From an uncultured Candidatus Binatia bacterium (GTDB lineage: Bacteria > Desulfobacterota > Binatia > UBA9968 > JAJDTQ01), in the NCBI GenBank assembly GCA_964291295.2, contig OZ219754.1, positions 1,248,001 to 1,312,000 of the forward strand: a stretch of 64,000 nucleotides of DNA, given 5' to 3'. The notes under the pieces are model-generated. The model ran no database searches and was not told the origin of the DNA. It saw nothing but the letters and a program-made list of their open reading frames with translations. Below, one piece after another: positions 43,962 to 52,090 of the stretch (positions are counted from its first letter, which is position 1; each line of letters begins with the position of its first letter). The position numbers and the translations under genes were made by a program.

Positions 43962-45239
43962 ATGCCCACCAACCGCCGCACGGTGTTCGCCTGGTGCCTT
44001 TACGACTTCGCCAACTCGGCCTTCACCACGCTGGTGGTCACATTCATCTATGCGGCTTTCTTCACCAGGGTCATTGCCCCGGACGAGGTGACGGGCACGT
44101 GGCTGTGGTCCCGGAGCGTCAGCGTCACGGCCATCGCCGTGGCGCTGCTGTCGCCGCTGCTGGGGGCCGTGGCCGATCGGCGCGGCTGGCGCAAGCGCTT
44201 TCTCGGGTTCTTCACGCTGGCGGCCGTGGTCGGTTCGTGTTTCCTGTACACCGCCATGCCCGGCGAGTGGGTCAAGGCGCTGCTCTGGTTCACCGCGGCC
44301 AATATCGCGTTCGAGATGGGCGGCGTGTTCTACAACGCTTTCCTGCCGGACGTGGCGCCACCGGACCGCATCGGGCGCATCTCGGGTTACGGCTGGGCGC
44401 TGGGCTACGTCGGCGGCCTCAGCGCCCTGGGGCTGGCCCTGGCGGGATTCGTGGATGCGGAGGTTCCGTGGTTCGGCTTCGAGAAGGAAGGCTACCAGCA
44501 CATCCGCGCCACCAATCTGCTGGTGGCCGGCTGGTTCGCCGTGTTCAGCCTGCCGTTGTTCCTGTGGGTGCCGGAGAGCCCGGCCGGGCCCGGCGTGCGC
44601 TCGTCGTCCAGCCCCTTCCGGCGGCTGGCGGCGACGTTCCGCGAAATCCGGCGCTACCCCGATGTCTTCCGCCTGCTGCTCGCCCGCCTCTTCTACGCGG
44701 ACGGCCTCAACACGGTCTTCGCCTTCGGCGGGATCTACGCCGCCGGCACCTTCGGCTTCACCTTCGAGGAGTTGCTGTTCTTCGGCCTGACGCTCAATGT
44801 GGCCGCCGGCCTGGGTGCCTTTGCGCTGGGCTTCGTGGACGACTGGCTCGGGGGCCGGCGCACCATCCAGATCAGCCTGATGGGATTCATCGTCGCCACC
44901 GTGACGGCGCTGCTCACCGGCCGCCGTGCGCTCTTCTGGGCCGCCGGCCTTCTCATCGGCCTGTGCGGCGGACCCAACCAGGCGGCCAGCCGCTCGCTCA
45001 TGGGCCGGTTCGTACCGGAGGGGAAGAAGAACGAATTCTACGGCCTCTTCGCCTTCTCGGGCAAGGCCACCGCCTTCCTGGGCCCCTTTCTGCTGGGTGA
45101 ATTGACCCGCTTCTTCGGCTCGCAGCGCGCCGGCATGGCGGTGGTGCTGGTCTTCTTCGTCATTGGCCTCGCGCTCATCGGGCGGGTCGACGAGGCGCGC
45201 GGGAAGCGGCCGGCAGCGGCGCCGGCGCGCCCCTCCTGA
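43962..45239 (+). CDS. MFS transporter, UMF1/ATG22-like family
   Basis: WCLYDFANSAF, SPLLGAVAD, YNAFLP, GPNQAASRS; about 12 TM segments. Confidence 0.92.
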   Translation: MPTNRRTVFAWCLYDFANSAFTTLVVTFIYAAFFTRVIAPDEVTGTWLWSRSVSVTAIAVALLSPLLGAVADRRGWRKRFLGFFTLAAVVGSCFLYTAMPGEWVKALLWFTAANIAFEMGGVFYNAFLPDVAPPDRIGRISGYGWALGYVGGLSALGLALAGFVDAEVPWFGFEKEGYQHIRATNLLVAGWFAVFSLPLFLWVPESPAGPGVRSSSSPFRRLAATFREIRRYPDVFRLLLARLFYADGLNTVFAFGGIYAAGTFGFTFEELLFFGLTLNVAAGLGAFALGFVDDWLGGRRTIQISLMGFIVATVTALLTGRRALFWAAGLLIGLCGGPNQAASRSLMGRFVPEGKKNEFYGLFAFSGKATAFLGPFLLGELTRFFGSQRAGMAVVLVFFVIGLALIGRVDEARGKRPAAAPARPS

Positions 45240-45882
45240 GGATCGCCAGCGCCGCCTTGACGCGGTTGTCCACGTTGAGCTTGGCGAAGATGCTGGTGAC
45301 ATGGGCCTTGACCGTGCGCTCGCTGATGAAGGTGCGGGCGGCGATCTCCCTGTTGCCGAGTCCCTCGGCCAGCAGCTCGAGGACTTCCAGTTCGCGCCGG
45401 GTCAGGCTTTTCAGCCCGTCAGCGTTCCTTGTCGCGGGCTCGGCGGGGGCCTGGGCGGCGATGGCGGCGAACTCGCCGGCGCGCGGCAGCTTGGGGTCGA
45501 TCCATATCCCGCCGGCGTGAATCGTGCGCACCGCCTGGACAAGCGTTTCGGGAGCCGCGTCCTTCAGGATGTAGCCGCGGGCGCCGGCCTTGGCCGTGTT
45601 GACGATGCTGTCCGCCTCCTCGAAAGCGGTGAGGATGGCCGTCCGGGTCCCGGGGTGGCCCTCCTTCAGTTCCAGGAGCGTCTGGACCGCATTTCTGCCG
45701 GGCATCCTGAGGTCCAGCAGCAGGACGTCGCCCCGACCCTTGGCGACGGCCGGCTCCACCTCCTCGGCCCGCGCCGCCTCCGCCGTGACCAGCAGGTTCC
45801 GTTCCCGCGCCAGGACGTGTTTCAGACCCTCCCGAAAGAGAGTGTGGTCATCCGCCAGGACGATCTTGATGGGCTCGGCCAT
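45175..45882 (-). CDS. NarL/FixJ-family response regulator (REC + LuxR HTH), orphan
   Basis: LADDH, LLLDLRMP, GYILK, LTRRELEVL..GLGNREIA..ISERTVKAH. Confidence 0.93.
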   Translation of the reverse strand: MAEPIKIVLADDHTLFREGLKHVLARERNLLVTAEAARAEEVEPAVAKGRGDVLLLDLRMPGRNAVQTLLELKEGHPGTRTAILTAFEEADSIVNTAKAGARGYILKDAAPETLVQAVRTIHAGGIWIDPKLPRAGEFAAIAAQAPAEPATRNADGLKSLTRRELEVLELLAEGLGNREIAARTFISERTVKAHVTSIFAKLNVDNRVKAALAILRRGAPAPLPAASRAPRRPAR

Positions 45883-45955
45883 GAGGGGACACTATTTCTT
45901 CCCGGCAGTCCGGATGTCAACGTTGGACGCCGTGTGCGCCCGCCTCCGGCGGAGT

Positions 45956-46927
45956 CTACAGAAAGGCGTTGCCGGCATGGTCGCAGAACGCGTCGGCGTC
46001 ACGGATGTAGCCCATGACGGTAGCAGGGCTGGTATGGCGGGTGACGGCCATGATCTTGTCGAGCCGGGCATGGTGGGCCGCCGCGCTGGTGACGAAACCC
46101 GCTCGCAACGAATGGCCGGACAGCTCTTTCGGATTCAGGCCGATGGCTGCGCCGTAGCGCTTGACCAGGCGCGGGATATCCGAGTGGTGCAGCGGCCGTT
46201 CCTGCACCGAACCGCCCCGTTTCATCGACCGGAACAGCGGCCCGCGCGTGATGCCCGACACCGACAACCAGGCTTGCACGCGGGCGATGGGCCTGACCGT
46301 TCTCCCTTCCGGGACCGCGATGCGCTGACCTTTGCCGTTCTGGTCGGTCTTGGAGCGGCGGACGACAAGCAGCATACGCTGGGGTTGGCGCCGGGTTGAC
46401 GGGAGGATCATCACATCGGCGACGCGCAGCGCACACAGTTCGGAGCGGCGCAGGGCGGCCGCGAAGCCGAGTGCCAGCACGGCCGCGTCGCGCCTGCCGA
46501 TTACCGAGTCGGGACAGCGCGCCAGCATGGCCGCCAACTCCCCCTCGCGCAGCGCCCTGACCCGCCGCGGTGCGGCGCTCGCAAGGCGGCTCAAGCCCTG
46601 GAGGGTTGCCCGAACGGTGGGGTGACGGGTGGGAGAGGGCATGCCGGCGTCGCTGAATCGCCTGGCGATGGCGCTGCTGTAGAGGAAGACCGTACCCATG
46701 GACAGCGGGACGCCGCGTCCCGAACGGGGACGCATGGCGCAGTCCAGGAGAAAGCGGGCGACGGTCTCCGGAGAGACGGAAAGCGGATCGGCGATCTTTT
46801 CCCGCGCGCAATACGTGGCGAAACGGGTCCAGCCCTTTGCGTAGGCCAGGCGCGTGTTCGGCGCGATGGCGGACGACAGGACAAGCTGGTGAATATCGGA
46901 TTGGTGAATATCGCATGTGTTCGGCAT
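45956..46927 (-). CDS. Tyrosine recombinase/site-specific integrase (Cre-like, SAM-like N domain)
   Basis: PNTRLAYAKGW N domain; catalytic R (LRRSEL), K (SKTDQ), HxxR (GHSLRAG), H (TRH) and Y (MGYIR) all present; start uncertain. Confidence 0.92.
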   Translation of the reverse strand: MPNTCDIHQSDIHQLVLSSAIAPNTRLAYAKGWTRFATYCAREKIADPLSVSPETVARFLLDCAMRPRSGRGVPLSMGTVFLYSSAIARRFSDAGMPSPTRHPTVRATLQGLSRLASAAPRRVRALREGELAAMLARCPDSVIGRRDAAVLALGFAAALRRSELCALRVADVMILPSTRRQPQRMLLVVRRSKTDQNGKGQRIAVPEGRTVRPIARVQAWLSVSGITRGPLFRSMKRGGSVQERPLHHSDIPRLVKRYGAAIGLNPKELSGHSLRAGFVTSAAAHHARLDKIMAVTRHTSPATVMGYIRDADAFCDHAGNAFL

Positions 46928-46953
46928 TGCGGACCTGATACTGTGCGGGACGA

Positions 46954-46983
46954 GGTTTATCAAACCAGCGGGTTTATCAAACC
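46954..46983. promoter_or_regulatory. Two direct copies of the interrupted palindrome GGTTT-ATC-AAACC upstream of the recombinase
   Basis: Copies at 46954-46966 and 46971-46983. Confidence 0.55.
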
Positions 46984-47230
46984 GGCGCGATTCCAGCGCA
47001 GTGCGATTGCTTGTCGATTGATCAAATATCGGGCGCGACGTTATCGGCCACGGAGTCGCGCAGGGGTCACCGCATGGGCGTGGACCGTAACAACAAGGCG
47101 GTATCAGGGGGTAGGAACTCCGGAGAACGGCCGGGTGACAGGGAGTGGCGGCAGGTGGTGGCTGGCGGGAAGGTGGCCTCTTGTGGCCTCCCGGATGCGA
47201 TTCGAGAAGGCTGCCCGGGCGGCCGGCGGC

Positions 47231-47266
47231 AAAACAGGGCCGTTCCACGAAGGAACGACCCTGTTT
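47231..47266 (-). terminator. Intrinsic terminator of left porin copy
   Basis: AAACAGGGTCGTTCC-TTCGT-GGAACGGCCCTGTTTT hairpin followed by a U-run, about 27 nt after the stop. Confidence 0.75.
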
Positions 47267-47292
47267 CCGTGCGGTTCCGGCGATGGACGGCG

Positions 47293-48789
47293 CTAGAACC
47301 GGTATTCGGCGATGAGGGTGAAGACGTTGGTCTTGTCGTCGCCCTTGTCCGCAGTGGCAAGCTGCTCGTTAGGCTGCTTGTGCGGACAGCCCTCGCCGTC
47401 GCAGCTGAGTTGATCCCACACGCCGTGGATCTGCATCCAGCCGCCGGGGGCGTTGTACACCACCGCCAAGCCGCTGTTGTTCCCTTCCTGGTCTTTCAGC
47501 GCGACGTTATTTCCGTACGTACCCTTCGAATCGACATCCGTGACGGAGTACATCGGGGAGAGGTAGATGCCTCCTTCCTTCTTGCTTCCGCCCATCATGC
47601 CGCTCTTGGGACCCCACAGCCAGACCTGCGCGGCCAAGCGAATCTCCGAGGCCTCGCGGTCGTATTTCATCGCTGTGTACAAACGGTTATCCGGTTCACC
47701 CTTGTAAGTTGCCAAGTGGGCGGACAGTCCGAGCCACTTCAGAGGCGACCAAGAAACGTTATGGTACGTGTAGGTGTGATCACCCGTCACCTTGCCGCCG
47801 ACATACGCGAAGTTGATCCGCTCCTGAGTCGTCGGGCCGTAAATGTCGCCCACGCCGTGGTAGAGATCCTTCATCTGCTCGTAGGTGAAGGAGTACTTCA
47901 GGCTCGATACGTCGAAGCCGCCCATCTGCGGCGACTTCGCCATGGGCTGGATGCCGATGCCGAAGGCCATGCTGCGCCCATCCCTGGACAGGATATTCTC
48001 GCCGCCTTCCCTCTTGAGATCAGGAGCAGTCGTCTCTTTGGTTTTGTCATAGGCAGTGACCGGGGTGCGGCCGTACTCATCCTGTTGATCGAGGCCGACG
48101 GCGAATGCGATGTGGTTGATCTTGCTGATGCCCATGGCGGGAAGCTTGCCCCAGTTCAGCACCAGGCTGCCGTCCTGCGATCCGCCCATGGCCAATGCGT
48201 TGATGAACGGCGAGTCTTCTGTCCGGCCATAACCGTTGTTCTTGTTGCCGTTGAACGAAGGGTTGTAGCCGTAGGCCACCGTCGGCAGCCAAGGGTTCAT
48301 CTTCTCGAAGTGGAGATAGGCGTCGCCGTCAAAGGCCACGGAGGTATTTCCGCTGAAGGTCCACTTGACTTCGTAGAAGCCCTGGTTCGACGTCACGTTG
48401 ATGTTGGGCCGAAAACGCCGGATTCGGATCACGCCGTTCTGGTAACCCATTGCGGGGTCGTCATTGGTGAGCCATATGCTGGTGTAGATCTGGAGCCGCT
48501 GCCCGAACGTGATGCTCCAGTTGTTGTCCGCCGCGGCGATGGTCAGGCCCTTGCCCGCGGAATACTTGAACGACGGCCCCTTCATCTCGGCCGCGAGGGC
48601 GCTCTCCTGGTTCCGTCTCTCCTGGTTCTGCTTCAGCTGCACCAGTTCCCGCTCCAGGGCTGCTATTCTTCCATCCACGTCGGTTTCGTCCACGTCGGAC
48701 GCCTGCACCGGCGATGCCGCGAGCACCATGCCCGCTGTCAGGACCAAGGCACTTGCGAAACCCAGCGCCTTCTTCAACACGTCATTCAT
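47293..48789 (-). CDS. Outer-membrane beta-barrel/porin-like protein, copy A (498 aa)
   Basis: Signal peptide ending VQA-S, short coiled coil, alternating aromatic beta strands, C-terminal AEYRF beta-signal; RBS AAGGAGG. Confidence 0.85.
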   Translation of the reverse strand: MNDVLKKALGFASALVLTAGMVLAASPVQASDVDETDVDGRIAALERELVQLKQNQERRNQESALAAEMKGPSFKYSAGKGLTIAAADNNWSITFGQRLQIYTSIWLTNDDPAMGYQNGVIRIRRFRPNINVTSNQGFYEVKWTFSGNTSVAFDGDAYLHFEKMNPWLPTVAYGYNPSFNGNKNNGYGRTEDSPFINALAMGGSQDGSLVLNWGKLPAMGISKINHIAFAVGLDQQDEYGRTPVTAYDKTKETTAPDLKREGGENILSRDGRSMAFGIGIQPMAKSPQMGGFDVSSLKYSFTYEQMKDLYHGVGDIYGPTTQERINFAYVGGKVTGDHTYTYHNVSWSPLKWLGLSAHLATYKGEPDNRLYTAMKYDREASEIRLAAQVWLWGPKSGMMGGSKKEGGIYLSPMYSVTDVDSKGTYGNNVALKDQEGNNSGLAVVYNAPGGWMQIHGVWDQLSCDGEGCPHKQPNEQLATADKGDDKTNVFTLIAEYRF

Positions 48790-48872
48790 GACCCCCTCCT
48801 TGGTAATCAGAGTTAACTACAACAGCCTGCAATCTGATTGGAGTTTTGTACTTTTTTCGCGTTATCCATGCA

Positions 48873-48901
48873 ATTGTACACAGGTATGGTTTTCCGCCCA
48901 A
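48873..48901 (-). promoter_or_regulatory. Putative sigma70 promoter facing porin copy A
   Basis: Minus strand TTGGGC (48901-48896), 17-nt spacer, TACAAT (48878-48873), within the AT-rich end of the spacer. Confidence 0.5.
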
Positions 48902-49240
48902 CATGGGCTGTAGGTGCCCATAAAGTAGTACCCAAGTCTTGTTTCCAGGATAGTCTGGCCGCATCCGGACGGCACCGGGCAAGAGCAGCGGCAGAGAGAC
49001 CGTCCTGTACCAACTGTTTCCGGCCCTGACCGAACCGGAACCGGACCGCAAGCCCCATCGGCCCGGAAACCCGGCCCGAAGGCCGCCTGACAATGCTGGC
49101 CAGCCCGGTGGAACGATTGTCGGCCTCGGTCCGGGTGACCGCATGGGCCGCATCGCTTCCGTGCATCGTTGCACCCCCTCCAGGACCACCCGAGCAGCCC
49201 CGGAAAGTCCATGATTACTCTGATTACCAAGGAGGGGGTC

Positions 49241-50611
49241 ATGAATGACGTGTTGAAGAAGGCGCTGGGTTTCGCAAGTGCCTTGGTCCTGACAGCGGGC
49301 ATGGTGCTCGCGGCATCGCCGGTCCAGGCGTCCGACGTGGACAAAAGAATAGCAGCCCTGGAGCGGGAACTGGCGCAGTTGAAGCAGAACCAGGAGAGAC
49401 AAGATCAGGAGAACGCGCTCGCGGCCGAGATGAAGGGGCCGTCGTTCAAGTATTCCGCGGGCAAGGGCCTGACCATCGCCGCGGCGGACAACAACTGGAG
49501 CATCACGTTCGGGCAGCGGCTCCAGATCTACACCAGCATATGGCTCACCAATGACGACCCCGAAATGGGTTACCAGAACGGCGTGATCCGGATCCGGCGT
49601 TTTCGGCCCAACATCAACGTGACGTCGAACCAGGGCTTCTACGAAGTCAAGTGGACCTTCAGCGGAAATACCTCCGTGGCCTTTGACGGCGACGCCTATC
49701 TCCACTTCGAGAAGATGAACCCTTGGCTGCCGACGGTGGCCTACGGCTACAACCCTTCGTTCAATGGCAACAAGAACAACGGTTATGGCCGGACAGAGGA
49801 TTCGCCGTTCATCAACGCATTGGCCATGGGCGGCTCGCAGGACGGCAGCCTGGTGCTGAACTGGGGCAAGCTTCCCGCCATGGGCATCAGCAAGATCAAC
49901 CACATCGCATTCGCCGTCGGCCTCGATCAACAGGATGAGTACGGCCGCGGGCCGGGACACGACACCGACGGGCGCAGCATGGCCTTCGGCATCGGCATTC
50001 AGCCCATGGCGAAGTCGGACCAGATGGGCGGCTTCGACGTATCAAGCCTGAAGTACTCCTTCACCTACGAGCAGATGAAGGATCTCAACTACGGCGTGGG
50101 CGGCATTTATGGTCCGACGACGCAGGAGCGGATCACCTTCGCGAATGTCGGCGGCAAGGTGCTGGGTGATCACACCTACATGTACCATAACGTTTCGTGG
50201 TCGCCCTTGAAGTGGCTCGGAATGTCCGCCCACTTGGCGACTTATGAGGGTGATGCGGACAGCGGCATGATGGCTGACGACCGCGAGGCCTCGGAGATTC
50301 GCCTGGCGGCGCAGGTCTGGCTGTGGGGTCCCAAGAGCGGCATGATGGGCGGAAGCAAGAAGGAAGGCGGCATTTCCATCTCCCCGATGTACTCCGTCAC
50401 CGATGTCGACACGATGGGCATGAAAGACCAGGAAGGTAACAATAGCGGCTTGGCGGTGGTGTACCACGTGCCCGGCGGCTGGATGCAGATCCACGGCGTG
50501 TGGGATCAACTCAGCTGCGACGGCGTGGACTGTCCGGATGAGATTGCCACTGCGGACGCGGGCGACGACAAGACCAACGTCTTCACCCTCATCGCCGAAT
50601 ACCGGTTCTAG
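49241..50611 (+). CDS. Outer-membrane beta-barrel/porin-like protein, copy B (456 aa), inverted paralogue of copy A
   Basis: Same 24-bp leader with RBS, same signal peptide, near-identical N-terminal half, same C-terminal DDKTNVFTLIAEYRF. Confidence 0.85.
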   Translation: MNDVLKKALGFASALVLTAGMVLAASPVQASDVDKRIAALERELAQLKQNQERQDQENALAAEMKGPSFKYSAGKGLTIAAADNNWSITFGQRLQIYTSIWLTNDDPEMGYQNGVIRIRRFRPNINVTSNQGFYEVKWTFSGNTSVAFDGDAYLHFEKMNPWLPTVAYGYNPSFNGNKNNGYGRTEDSPFINALAMGGSQDGSLVLNWGKLPAMGISKINHIAFAVGLDQQDEYGRGPGHDTDGRSMAFGIGIQPMAKSDQMGGFDVSSLKYSFTYEQMKDLNYGVGGIYGPTTQERITFANVGGKVLGDHTYMYHNVSWSPLKWLGMSAHLATYEGDADSGMMADDREASEIRLAAQVWLWGPKSGMMGGSKKEGGISISPMYSVTDVDTMGMKDQEGNNSGLAVVYHVPGGWMQIHGVWDQLSCDGVDCPDEIATADAGDDKTNVFTLIAEYRF

Positions 50612-50637
50612 CGCCGTCCATCGTCGGAACCGCACGG

Positions 50638-50680
50638 AAAGAGGGGCGTTCCTTCATGGAACGGCCCTCTTTTTTTATTT
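50638..50680 (+). terminator. Intrinsic terminator of right porin copy
   Basis: AAAGAGGGGCGTTCC-TTCAT-GGAACGGCCCTCTTTTTTT hairpin with a long U-run. Confidence 0.82.
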
Positions 50681-50849: not shown

Positions 50850-51509
50850 ATGGTGCGAGCCGGACGAACGATACGCGGACTTTTCGGTGGGGTTGTCGTC
50901 TGCACCCTTCTGATGGCAGGTCTTTCGGGCTGTTGGCGGCCCTCGGGCATCGGGGTGGGGGGCAAGTACAACGACGCGCTGAACGAGATGGGCAAGACCC
51001 TGCGTGGCGGGCAGGCCAGGAAGGCCATTGTCGACTTGCAGTATGTGGTCAGCAGGAACCCCCGGTACAAGGACAGCCTGACACAGCTCGGGCGCGCCTA
51101 CTATTACGCGGGCCGGTACGGTGACGCTTTCGACGTAGTGAAGCGGGGCTTGGCGCTGAACAGGGACGACGAGATCGGGTGGCTGGTTCTCGGGCTCACT
51201 CAGATGCAGCGCGGCGACGATGAGGGCGGACTTGCGAGCTTCAAGGGCGGCCTGACCCTGCTGGCCAAGGCCACGCGGGAAGGCTACAGGGACATACCGG
51301 ACGAGTTCTGGGACACCCGGGGGGTGGTACGCAGAGCCTTGCGCCGGAGCATCTCGCTGGCGCGCAAGGGTGTCGGCGAAAAACGCCGAATCATTCAGGC
51401 GGGTGAACTATTGCTCCACCGCGTCGACCGCGAACTCTATGACGCCGAACAGCTTCAGAGCCACAGCGAGTATCTGGACAGCCGGCGCGACCGGGAAAAG
51501 GACAATTAG
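50850..51509 (+). CDS. TPR-repeat lipoprotein
   Basis: Lipobox LSGC, TPR helices (LGRAYYYAGRYGDA, WLVLGLTQ); GAGG RBS. Confidence 0.8.
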   Translation: MVRAGRTIRGLFGGVVVCTLLMAGLSGCWRPSGIGVGGKYNDALNEMGKTLRGGQARKAIVDLQYVVSRNPRYKDSLTQLGRAYYYAGRYGDAFDVVKRGLALNRDDEIGWLVLGLTQMQRGDDEGGLASFKGGLTLLAKATREGYRDIPDEFWDTRGVVRRALRRSISLARKGVGEKRRIIQAGELLLHRVDRELYDAEQLQSHSEYLDSRRDREKDN

Positions 51510-51955
51510 TTCCTGATCCCGGGCCCGCTCCGTTCGACGAGGAGATGGAGGGCCGCGCCCTGTTCGCGCAGCAGGGCGCTCTGTTCGCGCAGAGCGGCGC
51601 CTTGCTCACGAAGCGCCTCGCCTTGCTCACGAAGCGCCTCGCCTTGCCGTTCCAATGCCAGAAGGTTGGCATTCAGCACTTTCATGGTCTCCTCATGGTT
51701 GGCCATGTATTGCTCATGGTTGGCCATGAATTCCGCGTGGCGGCGTTCTTGGGCGGCGACGACTTCGGCGTTCTGCATGTCCCTGCGCTGCATTCCCCGG
51801 TGCATGATCCATAGACCGGAGCCGATGAGCAGACACTGAGCGGTGCCGACACCGGCACTGATCCACAGCCCGGCATACTGATAGGACAGCGCCGTGGCCT
51901 GATAGGCCAGTACCGCGGACTGGTAAGCCAGCGTTGCGGTCTCGAATTCCGTCAT
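51506..51955 (-). CDS. Hypothetical TM + heptad-repeat coiled-coil protein
   Basis: MTEFETATLAY.., TM helix, 21-bp repeats encoding MANHEQY/MANHEET and about five REQGEAL-type heptads. Confidence 0.7.
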   Translation of the reverse strand: MTEFETATLAYQSAVLAYQATALSYQYAGLWISAGVGTAQCLLIGSGLWIMHRGMQRRDMQNAEVVAAQERRHAEFMANHEQYMANHEETMKVLNANLLALERQGEALREQGEALREQGAALREQSALLREQGAALHLLVERSGPGIRN

Positions 51956-52090
51956 GATGCGAGCCTTCGCCCTGGTCCCACAACCCGTGCTCCGCCAAGA
52001 TACACTATCGTACATATCGGCAAAAAGCGGAGGCCCTTTAGGTGCCGGAGAAAAATACTAGTTGCCGGGAGGGCCGATTGCAAGATTCGA

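Follow-up and report, generated by a model that had tools for sequence, protein, structure and literature searches.

A 64,000-nucleotide stretch of the genome of an uncultured Candidatus Binatia bacterium (contig OZ219754.1, positions 1,248,001 to 1,312,000; hereafter the window) carries two porin-like genes, porA and porB, which lie head to head as an inverted duplication beside a gene for a Cre-like tyrosine recombinase. A comparison of this locus within the genus suggests that it probably constitutes a recombinase-linked promoter toggle between two porin alleles. More specifically, we propose a two-state DNA-inversion switch, in which a segment of about 400 bp would carry the only promoter of the locus and would be flanked by two complete porin genes that diverge from it, their leaders and 5' coding regions forming inverted repeats. 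A crossover in or just inside these repeats would move the promoter from one allele to the other and leave both open reading frames (ORFs) undamaged; each allele would keep its own ribosome-binding site, start codon and terminator. The cell would then display either porin A or porin B, the other copy being silent. The neighbouring recombinase is the likely invertase, and the recombination site would probably lie in a core that is always identical between the copies, about -26 to +48 relative to the ATG. Homologous recombination or gene conversion between the long arms would keep the 5' halves alike, either as a by-product of switching or as a parallel process.

A head-to-head porin pair linked to a recombinase gene

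The two genes are inverted repeats of each other along nearly their full length. The recombinase-proximal allele porA (47293-48789, minus strand) encodes 498 aa, and the recombinase-distal allele porB (49241-50611, plus strand, inside the ORF 49169-50611) encodes 456 aa; the products share 83.5% amino acid identity (tblastn), and they are the only porin copies in their genome (3.7 Mb, 3 contigs). Between them lies a spacer of 403 bp of unique sequence (48814-49216), the segment proposed to invert, of which the left ~140 nt are AT-rich and the remainder is GC-rich. It is bordered by two 24-nt leaders with a ribosome-binding site, one at 48790-48813 (minus strand), which forms the inner edge of the inverted repeat and is a candidate recombination site, and one at 49217-49240 (plus strand), which is identical to the reverse complement of the first. 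The inverted homology falls into six blocks. The block adjoining the spacer pairs 48684-48813 with 49217-49346 (130 nt, 98%) and is followed outward by 48060-48683 versus 49332-49955 (624 nt, 97%), 47690-47982 versus 49967-50259 (91%), 47522-47663 versus 50277-50418 (93%), 47383-47498 versus 50421-50536 (94%) and, covering the 3' ends and terminators, block I5, 47231-47363 versus 50541-50673 (94%). A blastn comparison of the arms in the window returned 747 nt at 95.9% for the 5' arm and a further 752 nt at 85.8%. The terminator hairpin of porA (47225-47292, minus strand) is homologous to the terminator of porB (50612-50673, plus strand), in which a terminator-like site at 50647-50663 is followed by a T run; both belong to I5. 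The former folds at -42.7 kcal/mol (z -6.6), a value that none of 200 shuffles equalled. The same hairpin gave a sub-threshold ZTP match in Rfam (27 bits, gathering score 39, E 0.19), which we attribute to chance.

The recombinase gene (45956-46927, minus strand; first ATG at 46927, stop at 45956) encodes 323 aa and starts 366 nt beyond the stop codon of porA. An earlier reading of this DNA (the original prediction) had claimed a head-to-head inverted duplication of two beta-barrel genes, with an identical 24-bp leader, a near-identical 5' half, a conserved 3' end and terminators around a unique 403-bp spacer; the ORFs and the six repeat blocks bear this out in every particular. Its catalytically complete tyrosine recombinase, placed about 365 bp past the left stop, is likewise found, with a match to PF00589 and invariant catalytic columns.

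We surveyed the 28 genomes of the genus in the collection. The porin locus is syntenic, with a major facilitator superfamily transporter, a LuxR-type response regulator, the porin, a tetratricopeptide repeat (TPR) protein, a nucleotidyltransferase and a kinase-like gene. The head-to-head pair with the recombinase is found in nine genomes (G000, which is the genome of the window, and G002, G005, G006, G008, G010, G019, G020 and G042), in all of which the recombinase ortholog, at 77-82% amino acid identity, is placed between the response regulator and the proximal porin copy. All 18 porin ORFs of these genomes are intact, at 443-530 aa. One further genome (G018, 76% complete) has the recombinase at the same place, after which the contig ends with no porin assembled. 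A single porin copy is present in 13 genomes; the recombinase is missing at the 11 of these loci that were inspected, and the other two (G041, G043) are known by whole-genome search only. The remainder consists of a tandem porin-TPR duplication without recombinase (G024, L044 7478-13737), two genomes in which a full copy and a 5'-truncated inverted copy are 4-5 kb apart (G009, G023) and two without a porin match (G001, G007).

Because the arrangement recurs in eight other genomes, the inverted duplication is neither a matter of chance nor of misassembly, the latter having been named in the original prediction as a possible refutation. It is true that Logan contigs break at the repeats and that the depths in one sequencing run (X2) are unequal, as might be expected if strain variants had been merged during assembly. 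However, the same architecture with conserved flanks is present in all nine pair genomes, some of which are single-contig chromosomes of 3.9-5.0 Mb, and an assembly artefact is hardly credible as an explanation.

The predicted promoter module and the orientation of the spacer

With all pair loci drawn so that the recombinase is at the left, a single conserved block of ~105 nt is seen in each spacer, adjoining one of the two leaders. The single-copy porins of 12 further genomes have the same block upstream. An alignment of 21 upstream regions delineated a predicted promoter module, located in the window at 48845-48895 (minus strand). It consists of an upstream element, GGAAAACCATACC (48895-48883), a -35-like box TTGCAT (48873-48868) and, after 17 nt, a -10-like box TACAAA (48850-48845); the distance from the latter corresponds to an untranslated region of ~55 nt. 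Invariant among the 21 sequences are AAA..AC of the upstream element (GAAAACnGTAC), TTG of the -35-like TTGC(A/G)T, and the GTA, 17 nt beyond the -35, that opens the -10-like TA(G/C)AAA. A search with the module pattern returned nine matches in 159 kb on both strands, one per pair locus and all within the spacers. The other, promoter-less leader side has no similarity to the block in the pair genomes, its only conserved feature being ~20 nt adjoining the repeat; in the window, the 260 nt upstream of porB are GC-rich and unrelated to the module. Judged by its conservation, the module is predicted to be the ancestral porin promoter region. In this assembly it faces porA, and porB is without it; the module is presumably active and the copy that lacks it presumably silent. 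At the tandem locus of G024, the second porin copy is also without the module at the place read.

The orientation of the module differs between species. It points toward the recombinase-proximal gene in three of the nine pair genomes (G000, G005 and G010) and toward the distal gene in the other six (G002, G006, G008, G019, G020 and G042). The most direct comparison is provided by G005 and G002, the spacers of which are 77% identical over 297 nt in reverse orientation, so that the whole spacer has been turned round between the two. These genomes are sisters (support 95 in the Shimodaira-Hasegawa-like approximate likelihood-ratio test, SH-aLRT) in a tree of four concatenated flanking proteins, which had 24 rows and was obtained by a quick search with SH-aLRT as the sole support measure. 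On this tree the orientation changed at least twice among the nine pair genomes. That the spacer inverts at all on an evolutionary time scale seems to us very probable. The promoter flip without damage to the ORFs that the original prediction had put forward thus finds comparative support in the single module per locus, the two orientations across species and the intact ORFs, and the comparison of orientation and recombinase linkage in relatives that it had proposed came out in its favour, with three against six orientations and the recombinase at every pair. We expect that switching would also take place within populations.

Assembled contigs from sequencing runs contain the spacer as a unitig of 463 nt (48784-49246) that ends 30 nt inside each repeat, and for that reason orientation and heterogeneity are unreadable from such unitigs. 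Joints that appeared when contigs were mapped proved to be copies of one arm aligned on the other arm and are evidence in neither direction. In run X2 the spacer unitig has a depth of 224 against 64-67 for the flanking contigs; in run X1 all depths are ~122-127. The excess in X2 may reflect several strains sharing the spacer, or another cause.

The recombinase family, the repeat arms and the proposed route of inversion

The recombinase scores 50 bits against PF00589 (cutoff 27.1), and its closest solved structure is Cre (E 9.7e-6, residues 94-313). Its scores against the NCBIfam models of XerC, XerD and XerA are far below their cutoffs, and hence it is not a Xer equivalog. Residues R160/R161, K193, H272, R275, H298 and Y307 do not vary among the 14 sequences aligned (orthologs and paralogs); from the alignment with Cre and the known features of the family, we take these columns to be the catalytic R, K, H-x-x-R, H/W and Y. 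A search of 95 genomes from 26 other genera of the order found no ortholog, and a metagenome scan with the recombinase alignment yielded 523 relatives, the best 51% identical, and no further orthologous loci.

Two paralogs provide an indication of what the family does. They are 77% (G011) and 64% (G010) identical to the recombinase and are located 110-150 nt from inverted repeats of 112 nt at 100% (G011) and 171 nt at 91% (G010). These repeats are inside coding sequence and link a restriction-methylase gene of the Eco57I type, which includes a TaqI_C specificity domain, to a spare TaqI_C copy in inverted orientation (L051 8772-14470 in G010; L049 6842-9425 in G011). By their sequence, both loci are likely specificity shufflons of Type IIG restriction. 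The large restriction gene of G011 looks truncated beside transposase-like ORFs. Programmed inversions with nearby tyrosine recombinases have been described for Type II and IIG restriction enzymes, according to passages of PMC9881135; considering this description and the paralogs adjoining inverted-repeat restriction loci, the family appears to act as invertases.

The extent of the repeats bears on where and how exchange could occur. The inverted homology has its inner edge 23-26 nt upstream of both ATGs in each of the nine pair genomes. From this edge, the identity of the arms is unbroken for at least 71 nt (G042) and for up to 701 nt (G019), with one mismatch at +6 in G008. In the window the repeat starts at -24, in most relatives at -26. 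At the promoter-less repeat edge in the window (49212-49227) there is a direct duplication, TGATTAC-TC-TGATTAC, which may be the scar of an exchange. Within one genome, the 5' parts of the two copies are 77-99% identical, whereas orthologs are 50-75% identical at the protein level, and in six of the nine genomes the porin tree places A and B as sister sequences. The two copies thus evolve in concert, through recombination between the arms. G008 is of particular value here: its alleles belong to two deep porin clades and are ~62% identical beyond +198, and the 224 nt from -25 to +198 have been kept alike, with an unchanged repeat edge.

The leader itself distinguishes the pair genomes. The form ACTCTGATTACC occurs in 18 of the 18 copies of the pair genomes and in none of the 12 listed single or tandem genes, which have mostly TCTCGTTACC or unrelated forms, G021 differing by one base. 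Moreover, the leader form tracks the pair or single state and not the tree of flanking proteins, in which the states with pair plus recombinase and with a single copy are intermixed, with four changes among 21 rows. This pattern suggests that the pair state was lost repeatedly, or that species have exchanged the porin locus as a whole. With leader states assigned by eye, leader form and recombinase agree in three of three independent contrasts (sign test p 0.25, not significant). A scan of the genome collection with a 19-nt leader motif found seven loci with two inverted matches, all apparently already in the set, and four single matches, which is about the number expected by chance on our own estimate.

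Several observations weigh against a recombinase-linked toggle, and one group of them concerns the agent of inversion. The main rival explanation holds that the spacer inverts by general RecA-type recombination between the long arms, as in the sap locus of Campylobacter fetus to which the original prediction had likened it, the recombinase being a leftover of the element that delivered the second porin copy or having another function. Arms of 685-1621 nt at 77-99% identity across the pair genomes are ample substrates for it, and even counted as 71-1400 nt at that identity they would suffice for inversion without a dedicated enzyme. The sister grouping of A and B in six of nine genomes shows that gene conversion is frequent, and the crossover sites of G005 and G002 are mixed, with two parallel and five crossed, as for scattered exchanges. 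(In the trio G005, G002 and G010, crossover mapping had 0-5 informative sites per comparison and told us little, since the two copies in a genome are homogenised.) Nor was a core site detected: a search for lox-like dyads near the repeat edge gave no 13-8-13 site, the best having 6/11 matches, and there are no 14-mers common to the porin arms and the restriction-locus repeats. In addition, the co-occurrence of pair and recombinase amounts to three independent contrasts (sign test p 0.25), and part of it would be shared ancestry if both arrived as one insertion. Yet the recombinase has remained intact throughout the pair genomes, at 77-82% identity and without change in its catalytic residues, whereas the adjoining porins have diverged to 50-75%. 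The recombinase is missing at the 11 inspected single-porin loci and at the tandem locus, its paralogs sit at classical recombinase-driven inversion loci, and the leader form goes with it in all three contrasts, not significantly as noted. Finally, G008 has only 224 nt alike and still an unchanged repeat edge. On balance we consider RecA-type inversion alone unlikely and regard a role of the recombinase, with a site at the repeat edge, as the better supposition.

The other group of objections concerns whether there is a switch at all. The two genes could be ordinary divergent paralogs, each with its own expression signals, and the differences in orientation rare rearrangements without a switching function. 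Indeed, both orientations have been seen between species only, the contigs of the four runs (one study) break inside the repeat, and two changes of orientation among nine species are possibly rare events and not the trace of a fast switch. A generic sigma-70 scan returned no promoter in the spacer on either strand, and the conserved ~20 nt beside the promoter-less copy could be another control element. But such paralogs would not account for a module that is present as one copy at each locus, always directly next to one of the leaders, the other side of the spacer being without similarity to it, nor for a whole spacer that is cleanly reversed between sister species with its end points at the repeats, and they leave the linkage to the recombinase without explanation. 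This alternative strikes us as distinctly improbable, more so than RecA-type inversion. Our preferred interpretation thus remains a promoter toggle in which the recombinase takes part.

A more ambitious proposal is that one recombinase family runs a coordinated programme of anti-phage variation in the genus, one member toggling the two alleles of the main OprP-like porin through their single promoter and its paralogs reshuffling Type IIG specificity; the recombination site at the porin locus would then sit in the translated leader. We put this forward tentatively and consider it rather doubtful. If true, no recombinase-driven allele switch would have preceded the porin toggle among classical general porins, and the toggle would be a natural, compact genetic switch with two outputs, both states of which are productive.

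The porin alleles, related systems and neighbouring features

In an AlphaFold model of the porin (41 sequences; predicted local distance difference test 77, predicted template-modelling score 0.73), a signal peptide is followed by a long helix in the N-terminal part (residues 35-69) and by a beta-barrel. The best Foldseek matches are OprO (4rjw, E 9.6e-15) and OprP (2o4v, E 2.9e-14), with a template-modelling score of 0.65 on the target; general 16-strand porins come next. The sequence has no Pfam, NCBIfam or PDB sequence match. Among the 120 listed of its 184 homologs, the few that are named are called 'hypothetical protein' and none has a Pfam domain. In the modelled fold, porA and porB therefore encode OprO/OprP-like porins outside any named family, and the designation 'porin' in the original prediction holds at the level of the fold and fails as membership of a curated porin family by sequence.

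Differences between A and B alleles cluster in every other connection of the barrel, five in all (residues 234-271, 298-333, 367-377, 422-433 and 466-485), where 32-60% of the alignment cells differ; in most strands and the short turns between them this is 2-13%. Going by the strand order of the model and the usual topology of porins, we take the five variable connections to be extracellular loops, and most of the variation between the alleles would lie in these predicted surface loops. Phages commonly use porins as receptors, and porins are also exposed to other kinds of attack directed at the cell surface. If a clonal population could switch between two loop variants, it would be hedged against such threats, and these predicted loop differences suggest that protection against phages or other surface-directed threats may be its benefit.

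The proposed mechanism has several precedents. In E. coli fimS and the Bacteroides invertons, tyrosine recombinases flip a short promoter segment and thereby set one gene set ON or OFF; at the porin locus, in contrast, both orientations would be productive, giving allele A or allele B. In the sap system of C. fetus, the promoter-bearing segment that flips is flanked by homologs in opposite orientation, whose 5' regions are conserved and whose ORFs stay intact. This inversion is mainly RecA-dependent and the locus is not known to have a dedicated neighbouring recombinase, whereas the porin pair has a linked and conserved recombinase gene. The Omp1 system of Dichelobacter nodosus reportedly joins one 5' region to several 3' cassettes. 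It resembles the present locus in that an outer-membrane protein is varied by site-specific inversion, but here two whole genes would alternate. It has been described as a multiple-inversion system by Moses et al. (1995), as cited in PMC5903667.

The nearest known systems, going by passages of PMC3047005, are vsp, vpma and vsa of mycoplasmas and the pairs mba/UU376 and UU172/UU171 of Ureaplasma parvum. In vsp and vpma, site-specific inversion connects one active promoter to alternative surface-protein genes, which are silent otherwise; in vsa and mba, the promoter is linked to such genes together with the ribosome-binding site and the 5' coding end; and the Ureaplasma pairs consist of oppositely oriented genes that are alternately expressed (PMC3047005). 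Tyrosine recombinases have been proposed for these inversions, and Xer1 is named in PMC5634654. These systems vary lipoproteins of wall-less pathogens through repeats of 12-51 nt, whereas the locus in the window has complete 16-strand porins of an uncultured environmental lineage, repeats that extend hundreds of bases into the genes, and two alleles. The flipping of promoter segments by tyrosine recombinases is also stated in a review-type passage of PMC9881135. The Type II and IIG inversions treated there have repeats inside coding sequence, and relatives of the present recombinase flank such loci in G010 and G011; however, they swap 3' coding cassettes, whereas the porin switch would move the promoter and leave both genes unchanged. 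Cre/loxP of phage P1 is the closest solved relative of the recombinase, but the similarity is distant.

In the literature searched, supplements not included, no such switch has been described for a classical porin or for Binatia/Binatota, and the text of PMC9881135, again apart from its supplements, does not mention porins. The statement in the original prediction that no such system is described for this porin family agrees with this, though inversions that swap promoters between surface proteins are known. The mechanism is familiar; what is new is the target, an unannotated family of porins that are OprP-like in fold, and the lineage, and both orientations would be productive. Promoter-swapping inversion, known mainly from host-associated bacteria and mycoplasmas, would be extended to the classical porins of an uncultured environmental lineage, and a Cre-like recombinase family would be linked to targets of two kinds, namely a receptor and the specificity of restriction. 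The locus would moreover offer a small natural A-or-B switch for study that is readable directly in long-read metagenomes. Because assemblies report only the majority orientation, the annotation of the expressed porin would depend on the sample.

Some of the relatives have layouts of their own. In G009 (L045 5399-13470) and G023 (L046 6618-14161), the full porin adjoins the response regulator and the truncated copy is convergent, with repeats of ~390 nt at 89% and of 720-765 nt at 85%. The truncated copy of G009 has the recombinase next to it. If this layout inverted, the 3' part of the expressed porin gene would be exchanged. Pfam searches with the ORFs between the two copies, including the 4.3-kb segment of G009, and with the genes around the G023 paralog gave nothing useful. 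The recombinase-proximal allele of G042 (L048 6625-8214, 530 aa) has ~250 nt extra after codon 73, in the region of the N-terminal helix, and its frame is open. In G005, short decayed porin fragments (L033 6806-6912, residues 150-185) are present between the recombinase and the proximal allele and may be the remains of an older porin copy.

Directly downstream of the recombinase, on the same strand, lies the gene for the LuxR-type response regulator (45175-45920; Response_reg and GerE domains), which has its own sigma-70-like site, TTGACA-18-AATAGT (45920-45891). In the single-copy genomes this gene is divergent from the porin. The GAAAACnGTAC element, which precedes the porin -35 box, is a putative binding site of the response regulator. 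On the far side of porB, the region 51545-51724 contains two pairs of tandem 21-nt repeats (51555-51596 and 51683-51724), inside an ORF (51506-52015, minus strand) whose product has heptad-like repeats (ALREQG and similar).

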